Source: an uncultured Pseudomonadota bacterium (GTDB lineage Bacteria > Pseudomonadota > Alphaproteobacteria > Rs-D84). From it: 64,000 nucleotides of DNA. The notes below the pieces were generated by a model that was given only the letters and a program-made list of their open reading frames with translations, was not told the origin of the DNA and ran no database searches. Of the stretch, positions 60,648-63,573 are shown piece by piece. How positions within the stretch are numbered: the first letter of the stretch is position 1; each line of letters starts with the position of its first letter. The DNA lies in assembly GCA_902774285.1 (NCBI GenBank), contig CACYHO010000001.1, positions 6,888 through 70,887 of the forward strand, in the 5' to 3' direction. Made by a program: the position numbers and the translations under genes.

Positions 60648-60677
60648 AAAAGGGGCGAAATATTCGCCCCCTATTTT
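60648..60677 (-). terminator. terminator after thrS
   Basis: AGGGGCGAA-ATA-TTCGCCCC hairpin with T-tract on minus strand. Confidence 0.75.
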
Positions 60678-62410
60678 TACAATGGCATTTTAACAGCATC
60701 AACCATTTCAGAAATAAATTCAGACAATGGTTTAACTGATTGGCCTTCTTTACCTAAATGACGCAGTGTTACTGATTTGTCATTCATTTCTTTTTCGCCA
60801 ACAACCGCAATTATTGGCGTTTTTGCTAATGACAATTCACGGACTTTGTAATTTACCTTTTCGTCACGTAAATCAGCACGTGCATATATACCCGCATTAC
60901 TTAAAGATTTCACAACTTCATTTGCATAATCTTTATATTTTTCAGATACAGGGACAACAACAACTGGTTCTGGTGACAACCATAATGGTAAATTACCACC
61001 TGTTGATTCCAATAAAATACCCATAAATCTTTCGATAGAACCTAACATTGCACGATGCAACATTATCGGGCGATGTTTTTCTCCGTCTTCACCAACATAA
61101 GACAAATCAAATCTTTCTGGTAAATTCATATCTAATTGAACTGTACCGCATTGCCATACGCGCCCCATAGAGTCTTTCAAATAATTATCGATTTTTGGAC
61201 CATAAAATGCCGCATCATTTTCCGCAATCTCGTATTCAATACCATTCTTATCTAATGCGTTTTTAAGCGCACCTTCCGCCCTGTCCCAAACTTCATCAGA
61301 ACCGATACGAAATTCAGACAAAGGCCGTGTTGCCAATTTCATTGTAATTTTTTCAAATCCGAATTTACCATAAATATCTTTGATAAAACGCAAGATTTTT
61401 ACAACTTCTTCTTCCAATTGTTCTTCTGTACAGAAAATATGGGCATCGTCTTGGGTAAATTCACGCACACGCATCAAACCAGACAAAGCACCAGCGGCCT
61501 CGTAGCGATTTACTTTACCAAATTCAGCTAAATACAATGGTAAATCTTTATATGATTTCATGCCATTGCCAAACACCAACATACCACCAGGACAAGACAT
61601 AGGCTTTACACAGAAAACTTTACCATCTTGGGTTGTACCAGAATAATTATGCGCACCGTACTTAGCCCAGTGACCAGAACGTTCCCACAAACATCTATCC
61701 ATAACTGACGGTGTGGAAATTTCCTGATAACCAGAACGCTCTTGACGCGCACGAATATATTCAATCAACTTGCGATAAATTTTGTATCCCTTGTCATGCC
61801 AAAATACTGCACCCGGCGCATATTCTGGTTCAAAATGAAACAAATCCATATCTTTACCCAGTTTACGATTATCACGGGCAGCAGCTTCTTCTTGCATTTT
61901 CAAGAAAGATTCCAAAGCTTCTGCACTTTCAAACGCATCAACATAAATACGTTGCAACATTTTATTTTTAGAATCACCTTTCCAATAAGCGCCCGCAACA
62001 TTACGGATTTTAAAACCGTCCCTTGGCAAATCTTTGGATGATGCAACATGTGGTCCACGACATAAATCTGTGAAATCACGGAAAGTATAAATTGATAATA
62101 CTTCGCCATTTGCATCATATTCATTCAACCATTCCATTTTATAAGGCTGATTTTTAAAGATTTCTTTGGCTTCTTCCAAAGATATTTCGCGTCTATCAAA
62201 ACGACCGTCACTTTTAATCAAAGATTTCATTTCTTTTTCGATTGCCGCAAAATCATCTTCGCTGAATCTGTGTTCGGTATCGAAGTCATAATAAAAACCA
62301 TTTTCAATTGCCGGACCACCAGCGAATTTAACATCTGGATATAATTTTTGAACCGCTGCCGCCATTACGTGAGCCAGTGAATGACGAACTGTTTCTATTG
62401 GATAGGACAT
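60677..62410 (-). CDS. thrS: threonine--tRNA ligase (no TGS domain)
   Basis: RHSLAH, DLCRGPH, KPMSCP, RVREFTQDDAH, FYGPKID, HRAMLGSIERF. Confidence 0.98.
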   Translation of the reverse strand: MSYPIETVRHSLAHVMAAAVQKLYPDVKFAGGPAIENGFYYDFDTEHRFSEDDFAAIEKEMKSLIKSDGRFDRREISLEEAKEIFKNQPYKMEWLNEYDANGEVLSIYTFRDFTDLCRGPHVASSKDLPRDGFKIRNVAGAYWKGDSKNKMLQRIYVDAFESAEALESFLKMQEEAAARDNRKLGKDMDLFHFEPEYAPGAVFWHDKGYKIYRKLIEYIRARQERSGYQEISTPSVMDRCLWERSGHWAKYGAHNYSGTTQDGKVFCVKPMSCPGGMLVFGNGMKSYKDLPLYLAEFGKVNRYEAAGALSGLMRVREFTQDDAHIFCTEEQLEEEVVKILRFIKDIYGKFGFEKITMKLATRPLSEFRIGSDEVWDRAEGALKNALDKNGIEYEIAENDAAFYGPKIDNYLKDSMGRVWQCGTVQLDMNLPERFDLSYVGEDGEKHRPIMLHRAMLGSIERFMGILLESTGGNLPLWLSPEPVVVVPVSEKYKDYANEVVKSLSNAGIYARADLRDEKVNYKVRELSLAKTPIIAVVGEKEMNDKSVTLRHLGKEGQSVKPLSEFISEMVDAVKMPL

Positions 62411-62457
62411 AATTTACCTTCTTCTTTTTTATATATTATTATTTAATTGCTTGCTTA

Positions 62458-62486
62458 TTATAATACGCGCGAAAATTTATCGCAAA
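62458..62486 (-). promoter_or_regulatory. proximal sigma70 promoter of thrS
   Basis: TTGCGA-17 nt-TATAAT on minus strand. Confidence 0.6.
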
Positions 62487-62493
62487 TAAAAAT

Positions 62494-62550
62494 CTAGACC
62501 CCCAAAGGGGTTGTAGTAGTCAATGTTAAAACAAATAATTTATAAATCAT
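62494..62550 (-). CDS. Thr-rich leader peptide MIYKLFVLTLTTTTPLGV
   Basis: 5 Thr in 6 codons (ACA TTG ACT ACT ACA ACC) directly upstream of thrS; ATG 7 nt after a -10 box. Confidence 0.7.
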   Translation of the reverse strand: MIYKLFVLTLTTTTPLGV

Positions 62551-62557
62551 GCTTTAT

Positions 62558-62586
62558 ATTCTAGTACCATAAAAACAAAAAGTCAA
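62558..62586 (-). promoter_or_regulatory. distal sigma70 promoter driving the leader
   Basis: TTGACT-17 nt-TAGAAT on minus strand. Confidence 0.7.
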
Positions 62587-62615
62587 AAAAAATCCGCCTT
62601 TACGGCGGATTTCTT
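62585..62615 (-). terminator. terminator after TPR gene
   Basis: AAATCCGCC-GTAAA-GGCGGATTTTTTTT on minus strand. Confidence 0.82.
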
Positions 62616-62619
62616 ATTT

Positions 62620-63573
62620 TTAATTCAAGTCACTCAACAGGTTTTGAAGCCGTGACATACTTTCTTCATCGTTTAATGCGACAGCGATTGCAAACGCTGA
62701 TTCTAAATCAGTTCTTGCGGCATCAACATTCCCGATATTCAAATTCAACGCTGCTGATTTTTCAAAATAAGACATTGCATTGCTTGATTGCTCTTCGCGC
62801 ATATCTTGTGTTGGTGCGGCCTGAATTTGTTCACTTATGATACGAACGGCAGATGTGTAATCGTTAATCGCGTTTTCATATTCACCCAATGCCGTATAAG
62901 CTTCTGCACGTTCTGCATATACATTTGCAGAAATACTGCCCTCTGTTCTTGCCAAAGAATTTGTATAATCAGCAACTGCGCCCTGCCAATTCTTTAACCA
63001 CAAATTCAACTGGCCACGTTTTGCATACAAATCACGCAAATTCAAAACTTCGCTTGGTTTCATAGATTGTGCAGCCAACGCATTGTTAATATCAGTCAAT
63101 GCTGCATCATAATTTTCAAGACGTGCATTCAACAAAGATCTATCATAGAAAGCAACTGCATTCATACCATCTATTTCCAAAGCAGAATCAAAATCACTTA
63201 ATGCCTTTTGATAATCGCCAATTTGCATATACGCCTCACCACGCAAAGTGTATGTATTCGAAGCGGCGTTCGCATCAATCGCAGCATTCAAATCCGTAAT
63301 TGCAGCATCCATATCACCAGCAATTAATTTTTCTTTTGCTGTTGCAATATAATCGTCTGCTTGGGCCAAAATTTCTTCTGTGACAGTCACATTTGTACGT
63401 GGATGTGTAAATTCATGACTGCGTCCCAAAATATAAAATGTAGATGCAATAAAGAACAAAATTATGAACCAATATGCATAAATCGACCAAGACCAAACAC
63501 AACAGCTGTTTTGAACGGCCTTGCTTGCAACTGATGTTGACTTTGTTTTCTTTGTGTTTTTTATTTTTTTCAT
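62620..63573 (-). CDS. membrane-anchored TPR protein
   Basis: N-terminal TM then repeated Y..RG.AY...GDY..A..D units. Confidence 0.85.
   Translation of the reverse strand: MKKIKNTKKTKSTSVASKAVQNSCCVWSWSIYAYWFIILFFIASTFYILGRSHEFTHPRTNVTVTEEILAQADDYIATAKEKLIAGDMDAAITDLNAAIDANAASNTYTLRGEAYMQIGDYQKALSDFDSALEIDGMNAVAFYDRSLLNARLENYDAALTDINNALAAQSMKPSEVLNLRDLYAKRGQLNLWLKNWQGAVADYTNSLARTEGSISANVYAERAEAYTALGEYENAINDYTSAVRIISEQIQAAPTQDMREEQSSNAMSYFEKSAALNLNIGNVDAARTDLESAFAIAVALNDEESMSRLQNLLSDLN

Follow-up and report, generated by a model that had tools for sequence, protein, structure and literature searches.

In Streptomyces lividans TK24, thrS, the gene for threonyl-tRNA synthetase (ThrRS), is preceded by thrL, a leaderless open reading frame (ORF) that encodes the peptide MKRVRPFLETTPGFVPAR and is accompanied by one hairpin. 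It has been annotated from RNA sequencing as a Thr-dependent attenuator, an annotation that comes without functional tests (Droste et al. 2021, PMC8079986). The same paper places leaders before alaS, leuS and trpS of S. lividans as well (PMC8079986). In the msrDL-msrD system, experiments show that a stalled ribosome lies over the first half of a single weak Rho-independent terminator (-7.9 kcal/mol) and prevents termination (Fostier et al., 10.1101/2021.11.29.470318). At leaderless polycysteine ORFs of mycobacteria, a stalled ribosome is reported to block a structure hiding a ribosome-binding site (RBS; Canestrari et al., 10.1101/834739). Here we analyze a leader with a run of Thr codons that lies upstream of thrS in an uncultured alphaproteobacterium of the order Rs-D84, in a 64,000-nt stretch of contig CACYHO010000001.1 (the window, i.e., this whole stretch).

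The leader is real and strongly conserved, and its conservation across relatives is what decides against chance. All window features described below are read on the minus strand. An earlier reading of the letters without database searches (the sequence-only reading) had listed, in this order, a promoter (P1), an ATG 7 nt further on, a short upstream ORF (uORF), a hairpin, a U-rich tract, a second promoter (P2) and thrS, and we recovered this order base for base. P1 (62558-62586) consists of TTGACT (62586-62581), a 17-nt spacer and TAGAAT (62563-62558), and the leader ATG at 62550 comes 7 nt after the end of its -10 box. The uORF (62494-62550) has 18 codons, encoding MIYKLFVLTLTTTTPLGV, and a TAG stop codon (62496-62494). 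Within it, the Thr codon run (62509-62526) reads ACA TTG ACT ACT ACA ACC, so that Thr occupies codons 9 and 11-14, i.e., five of six consecutive codons.

Such a run is rare in this genome (G000; 855 kb, G+C 36%). Thr makes up 6.2% of its codons, and six-residue windows with at least five Thr were found 13 times among 258,611 in its ORFs. The leader uORF was the sole one of 49 promoter-proximal small ORFs with at least five of one residue in seven codons. The promoter and folding scores of the window's own sequence did not stand out: promoter-like matches in the window were not above chance (5, versus 3.3 +/- 2.0 in shuffles), and the 142-nt window leader folded no better than shuffles (z = -0.21).

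The distribution of the leader was followed with a strict motif, ACNACNACCCCNNNNGGGG, which 236 of 256 genomes of the genus (Candidatus Enterousia) contained, as did 255 of 328 across the order, nearly always in a single copy; the reversed control pattern matched 9 of the 328. The thrS upstream regions were then read at 65 loci, two of which (L006 and L131) are cut at a contig end. Among the remaining 63, the leader was present in 53, one of them (L111) with an inserted small ORF. Loci L001-L030 came from an even draw of relatives, as its best matches; the leader was found at all 23 of them that are of the same genus and have upstream sequence, and at 3 of 6 from other families. Fifteen genomes lacking the strict motif (L126-L140) were also read, and 10 of the 14 with readable upstream sequence carried a variant leader, so the motif tally underestimates the true frequency. 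No leader was seen at ten thrS loci (L028-L030, L033-L035, L129, L132, L134 and L139). In every case seen, the leader lies just upstream of thrS, although the gene upstream of it differs.

Outside the order the picture is sparse. No Thr-rich uORF was found at 78 other proteobacterial thrS loci (L033-L110), save a doubtful case at L106. A class-wide motif search matched 20 of 397 genomes outside the order, which may be no more than background; one unpublished genome (G367) belongs to this sample, enters only the tally, and has its match away from thrS. Twelve of 26 out-of-order matches were inspected (L144-L155), and only L144 lies at thrS. At this locus (G350, another order), the leader precedes a thrS without the TGS domain by 70 nt and encodes MSWIVNKTTTRLTTTP, with its stop codon in the hairpin loop. 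An AAGGA 10 nt before the L144 leader ATG means that this leader may be led by a Shine-Dalgarno (SD) sequence, not leaderless.

The sequence-only reading had proposed conservation of the Thr codons as a test, and the Thr run recurs in relatives with synonymous variation: in 52 leaders compared, codon positions 1 and 2 are nearly fixed and position 3 is nearly free. Entropy at codons -2 and -3 comes to 0.45-0.9 bits for positions 1-2, compared with about 1.75 bits for position 3, with ACA, ACT, ACC and ACG all in use, and leader Thr codon use, the fixed ACC aside, matches genome-wide usage. At the six codons before Pro, from far to hairpin-near, Thr is present in 26, 30, 39, 47, 50 and 51 of the 52 leaders, and each leader has from two to eight Thr codons, with a mode of five. 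The uORF is 15-21 codons long in these relatives, and an ATG in the Thr frame lies 3-12 nt 3' of the -10 box in every one. An ATG-started frame is open up to the hairpin in 52/52 leaders for the Thr frame, and in 1/52 and 5/52 for the other two. The spacing from ATG to hairpin is 36, 39, 42, 45 or 48 nt, i.e., differences in length are multiples of three. The uORF is almost certainly translated.

The sequence-only reading had also described the uORF as leaderless, and the comparison agrees. In 51/52 leaders, a -35/-10 pair whose boxes are 16-18 nt apart ends 4-11 nt 5' of the leader ATG (7 nt in 23, 9 nt in 19), and an SD-like 4-mer precedes none of the 52 leader ATGs, versus 46/52 thrS ATGs. 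At the sequence level, we infer that the leader mRNA is leaderless or has a 5' untranslated region of at most about 3 nt.

In its N-terminal half the peptide is free to vary. Its conserved end, T-T-P-x-G-V/L, consists of the residues dictated by the hairpin sequence ACC CCN NNG GGG UNN. This bears on the proposal that P1, the uORF and the hairpin form an independent tiny gene, whose product would be a small, trans-acting hydrophobic peptide (..TTTTPxGV) or a short RNA without any cis control of thrS. The element does have its own promoter and a terminator-like end, the peptide C terminus is conserved, and trans-acting attenuator products (peTrpL and rnTrpL) are reported in Sinorhizobium. However, the residues conserved are those fixed by the hairpin (ACC CCN .. 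GGG GUN) together with the cognate Thr codons, the N-terminal half being free; the element lies just upstream of thrS in every case seen, whatever the upstream neighbor; and a second hairpin (B, described below) covaries 3' of the supposed transcript end. We consider a tiny gene of this kind very unlikely.

The hairpin at the end of the uORF, termed hairpin A, has the core ACCCC-UUUG-GGGGU (62498-62511) and is terminator-like in our scan. In the minimum free energy (MFE) fold it is extended by an outer pairing of CUA (62516-62514) with UAG (62496-62494), giving a structure that spans 62494-62516 and encloses the stop codon. In the window and in the compared leaders, the last Thr codon, ACC, always opens the 5' arm. 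The outer CUA/UAG pairing is conserved among the closest relatives only. Hairpin A and the stop codon are followed directly by a U-rich tract, AUUUUUAUUU (62484-62493), which in most relatives contains a nearly invariant C (UAAUUUCUAUU) that the window leader lacks.

Folded locally in the 52 leaders, hairpin A ranged from -7.3 to -12.7 kcal/mol around a median of -9.1, with -8.6 kcal/mol in the window. The stem is invariant (four C-G pairs and one A-U) in 53 aligned matches, and the loops vary. RNAalifold, applied to a MAFFT alignment of the 52 leaders, returned only three invariant C-G pairs (the CCC/GGG core); it gave nothing beyond the hairpin A core because hairpin B was misaligned. The scan's terminator rule is satisfied at hairpin A in 31/52 relatives. 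Termination at hairpin A is plausible, given that the msrD terminator, at -7.9 kcal/mol, is functional.

The sequence-only reading had seen no separate antiterminator, and this held throughout the comparison. In folds of RNA ending after the 5' arm, that arm paired upstream in 0/52; GGG occurred within the uORF in 1/52, and CCC between hairpin A and thrS in 1/52. When the 5' arm was removed, the 3' arm was paired in the MFE structure in 28/52 leaders; in most of the 11 such folds inspected, its partner was the AUUUCU that follows it. This GGGGGU:AUUUCU pairing of the freed 3' arm was not adopted: it is mostly G-U, weak, and absent from the window's own leader.

The mechanism we favor, to which we give slightly better than even chances, is a ribosome-mediated, leaderless Thr sensor that would gate read-through from P1 into thrS by occlusion of a single hairpin. 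The P1 transcript would begin with the AUG of the uORF (15-21 codons) or no more than about 3 nt from it. The uORF ends in a Thr run whose final ACC also opens the 5' arm of hairpin A, and the U-rich tract lies beyond the hairpin. When charged tRNA-Thr is scarce, a ribosome would dwell on the Thr codons near the hairpin and cover the ACCCC arm. With the arm covered, hairpin A would be blocked and the polymerase would continue into thrS, adding to the transcripts from P2. When translation is unimpeded, or absent, hairpin A would form and part of the P1 transcripts would stop there.

The geometry suits this proposal. The ribosome footprint extends about 12 nt beyond the A site, and the Thr codons with the strongest conservation, four in number, are found inside ACCCC or 0-9 nt ahead of it, as would be needed to occlude the 5' half of a single hairpin. 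Since the best-conserved Thr codons (0 to -3) are those that would cover ACCCC with the A site there, their conservation favors stalling that leads to read-through. Sequence and comparison show the parts, how they are conserved and which frame is read, and from these we infer that the uORF is translated, that transcription ends at hairpin A, that P1 and P2 are active, which way the response goes and how ribosome and polymerase are timed. The sequence-only reading, which had a ribosome on the Thr codons occluding the terminator, is partly supported, the hairpin being weak (median -9.1 kcal/mol) and five or more U in 8 nt being present in only 31/52.

Several points weigh against the mechanism. 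Hairpin A of the window (-8.6 kcal/mol) falls within the weakest 10% of the gene-end terminator-like sites of its genome, which were called by the same rule at 158 of 764 ORFs and have a median of -13.3 kcal/mol. Interruptions occur in the U tract, whose best 8-nt window has at least five U in 31/52 leaders, four in 16 and three in 5, and two outgroups (L026 and L027) are almost free of U after hairpin A. Hairpin A shows no covariation, so its pairing is supported by sequence conservation alone, which is confounded with the Thr-Pro and Gly-Val codons. The covarying hairpin B has no role in the model. Because the stop codon lies 3' of the hairpin, a fast ribosome close to the polymerase would also mask hairpin A, and the leader has no pause hairpin for synchrony between ribosome and polymerase. 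In leaders with five to six Thr codons, halting at the first of them would place the ribosome too far back to cover the ACCCC core. As to the comparison itself, the 63 loci are not a random sample, L111-L125 having been chosen by the motif, and the compared sequences are relatives, so the counts overstate their independence. A public metatranscriptome, which contained 7% of the sequence words, yielded at 88% likeness 12 short contigs of relatives, all on coding parts, which are uninformative on leader transcripts. U-rich, TTCTTT-like stretches, of possible interest as a polymerase pause element, precede the Thr run in leaders.

Masking by a fast ribosome and a first-Thr stall short of the core led us to keep two rivals, one of opposite sign and one in which hairpin A is not a terminator. 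The first would resemble the pyrBI leader, where the leader ORF extends across a single terminator hairpin, and termination is suppressed by a ribosome that keeps close behind the polymerase. At thrS, a fast ribosome behind the polymerase would block hairpin A and allow read-through when Thr is replete, a starved ribosome would lag and permit termination, and P2 would provide the floor. Such a response fits a uORF that spans the whole of hairpin A, with its stop codon at or past the 3' arm in most leaders, and the lack of an antiterminator, which means that a ribosome can only prevent termination. It fits, too, with the position of the first of the five to six Thr codons, 12-15 nt before ACCCC, from where a halted ribosome would miss the core. 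However, Thr conservation peaks beside the hairpin and is lowest 12-15 nt upstream, the reverse of what would be needed, and some leaders have just three Thr codons, directly at the hairpin (L025, L121 and L130). To our knowledge, the amino-acid-specific controls of synthetase genes (T-box, pheM-pheST) all induce on starvation, which also argues against the opposite sign. We regard it as unlikely, and return to occlusion by a stalled ribosome as the favored mechanism.

Between hairpin A and thrS lie two further elements. Promoter-like P2 (62457-62485) consists of TTGCGA, a 17-nt spacer and TATAAT, with its -10 box ending 46 nt before the thrS ATG. Single-sequence scores of the P2 sites are not above shuffles, and the support for P2 is positional conservation: the second promoter named in the sequence-only reading corresponds to a promoter-like site that, as the best in its region, starts 10-15 nt after hairpin A in about 42/52 leaders, usually as TTGCNN-17-TATAAT. 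Inside the P2 spacer, and starting 9 nt past the stop codon, is hairpin B, UGCGA-uaaauuu-UCGCG (62468-62484), which had escaped the sequence-only reading. A B-like form, UGCNN-loop-NNGCR, begins 6-10 nt past the stop codon in 43/52 leaders. A covariance model was made from 10 leaders that share one geometry and used to realign the set; four of the five pairs of hairpin B then showed changes on both sides (at one pair, for example, CG 14, AU 12, GC 12, UA 3 and GU 2), and 95.4% of cells were paired. The covariation score was reached by 0/500 shuffles, for an alignment that is model-fitted and sequences that are kin. In four leaders (L113, L114, L128 and L140) the promoter-like site is shifted downstream and hairpin B is kept, so hairpin B is no by-product of P2. 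Since hairpin B can form only on P1-derived RNA, read-through RNA must be made and must matter.

These features bear on the second rival, in which the uORF is a Thr sensor and hairpin A is not an intrinsic terminator but a pause, a processing or stability signal, or part of an interference between P1 and P2, with hairpin B belonging to the device. In keeping with it, hairpin A is weak and its U tract imperfect, the -35 box of P2 lies only 10-15 nt past hairpin A, and a ribosome on the stop codon would abut the covarying hairpin B, 6-10 nt further on. The retention of hairpin B at the four loci with a displaced promoter-like site, and its existence on P1 read-through RNA only, point the same way. 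On the other side, hairpin A is terminator-like in the window scan and obeys the same rule in 31/52 relatives, and the msrD terminator works although it is as weak as -7.9 kcal/mol. Nor does the sequence indicate any specific alternative; pairing with the thrS RBS was absent from the window leader, the only one folded that far. A non-terminator role for hairpin A seems improbable to us.

A further possibility, in which we place little credence, is that the leader reads ribosome position with two hairpins and is fused to a promoter. Hairpin A would gate read-through as in the favored mechanism. Hairpin B, which lies in the P2 spacer and at the very point that the front of a ribosome sitting on the stop codon would reach, would report whether translation had run to the end of the leader, and would link that state to P2 use or to what becomes of the read-through RNA. 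If this were true, amino-acid sensing and control of an overlapping second promoter would be joined in one 130-nt module. No such layout was found in the literature consulted.

The sequence-only reading had further suggested that this genome might use uORF attenuation more widely. This was not borne out: scans of all upstream regions gave no other cognate uORF. Ninety-eight small ORFs with at least four of one residue in six codons were found in 396 upstream regions, and the others were F, L, K, I, N and S runs typical of A+T-rich DNA. Because the scans covered upstream regions in general, without singling out each aminoacyl-tRNA synthetase gene, weak leaders with two to three cognate codons could have been missed.

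The gene downstream of the leader, thrS (60677-62410), encodes 577 amino acids with tRNA_SAD, class II core and anticodon-binding domains, and lacks the N-terminal TGS domain. Its SD region, GAAGAAGG (62417-62424), lies within a 46-nt A-rich stretch between the P2 -10 box and thrS. A short, TGS-less thrS (in the window, beginning in the editing-domain region) was present at every leader-bearing locus read. The TGS-bearing thrS loci read (L029, L030 and L033-L035) had no leader, and short thrS genes without a leader were also seen at L028, L129, L132, L134 and L139. The genome has three tRNA-Thr genes (anticodons GGU, CGU and UGU); all three tRNAs would be charged by ThrRS, and mixed Thr codons would sample all of them.

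On the other side of the leader is a TPR-repeat gene (62620-63573; Pfam TPR families), whose strong intrinsic terminator (62587-62615; a 12-pair stem, then a T run) would shield P1 from upstream transcription. This terminator was called on both strands by the scan and directly abuts the P1 -35 box, without a spacer. Two relatives have insertions between leader and thrS, a small ORF of about 110 codons at L111 (G054) and an element of about 130 nt with long inverted repeats (GTCATTCCCGCGCAGGCGGGAAT...) at L118 (G313); at both, the leader, hairpin B and the TATAAT box remain together upstream of the insertion.

Second-locus matches to the motif (ACCACCACCCC...) proved to be the other frame of a coding gene (LPPPPL), matched no Rfam family, and are not leaders. 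At two such loci, L142 (G089:C7) and L143 (G155:C1), the gene upstream of a putative proS (recognized by eye from its N terminus) ends in ..LLPPPPLTGL.., about 100 nt before the proS start; another motif locus of the same inspected set is L141 (G111:C11:103500-104500). The four consecutive Pro codons adjoining the putative proS may be a coincidence or may reflect a Pro-dependent coupling.

The window ThrRS is 84-85% identical to ThrRS of metagenome-assembled genomes that include Candidatus Enterousia sp. The genus is assigned to the order Rs-D84 (Alphaproteobacteria), whose members are described as uncultured gut bacteria with genomes below about 1 Mb and without amino-acid biosynthesis (PMC12306168). 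In such bacteria, threonine must come from outside, and the leader, if it acts as proposed, would be one of the few amino-acid-specific sensors that they have kept. Control of a synthetase gene by a leader peptide would then reach Alphaproteobacteria as well. The leaders would also offer a very compact, well-sampled natural series, with hundreds of variants, for asking how, with a single hairpin and no antiterminator, the time that a ribosome dwells is turned into a decision on transcription. Attenuation in general would be seen no differently.

Three further known types of control did not match this leader. The Rfam family Thr_leader (RF00506) was absent among 30 matches at E <= 10 in 62300-62750, where the matches listed were far below the gathering threshold and lay on the terminator of the neighboring gene. 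No T-box match at E <= 10 was found in the same interval, and the leader, of about 140 nt, has one 5-bp hairpin. The translational operator of E. coli thrS is a mimic of the tRNA-Thr anticodon arm that is bound by ThrRS and has a 7-nt loop near the RBS. No features of this type were seen in the leaders, in which the loops are variable (3-5 nt in hairpin A, 3-9 nt in hairpin B) and the SD sequence lies 55-100 nt downstream of both hairpins. Literature searches, mostly at the level of search listings and including part of PMC2965389, found no thrS leader in Alphaproteobacteria and no report on regulation in Rs-D84.

With the classical thrL, trp, his and leu attenuators of E. coli, the locus shares a short ORF with cognate codons upstream of a hairpin and U tract, with the ribosome as the sensor. 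Those attenuators have an SD-led ORF, a pause hairpin, mutually exclusive antiterminator and terminator, and a stop codon 5' of the terminator, and they control biosynthetic operons; here, in contrast, there is one hairpin at the uORF, no antiterminator, a stop codon within or after the hairpin, and a leaderless start. The pheM leader of E. coli pheST is a leader-peptide attenuator of a synthetase gene, with Phe codons and a classical multi-hairpin design, and belongs to gammaproteobacteria; the control proposed here would likewise act on an aminoacyl-tRNA synthetase gene through cognate codons. The pyrBI leader differs in its signal, which is UTP-dependent pausing of the polymerase, not codon-specific stalling.

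The leaderless systems come closer. S. lividans thrL resembles the present leader in being a leaderless short ORF before thrS, with Thr codons followed by Pro-Gly (..ETTPGF..) and one hairpin. It differs in belonging to an actinobacterium and in having two Thr codons only, and its published description reports no U tract, second promoter or second hairpin. A degenerate pattern made from the S. lividans thrL peptide matched 0 loci in the genome contigs searched, and the shared feature is the TTPG motif only. The mycobacterial Cys ORFs are also leaderless sensory ORFs with a run of cognate codons, and have an RNA structure blocked by a stalled ribosome, as is proposed here; unlike in that system, hairpin A is terminator-like and lies about 90 nt from the thrS RBS. 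The msrDL system shares one weak terminator-like hairpin without an antiterminator, judged here by geometry, and differs in sensing a macrolide via the nascent peptide, in its SD-led ORF of six codons and in a NusG-dependent pause site, which allows time for coupling. The sequence-only reading had thought the design unusual, a view that the published S. lividans thrL-thrS and msrDL systems do not support. Leader-peptide control of this kind is already known; what is new is the lineage in which it is proposed, together with the unexplained hairpin B.

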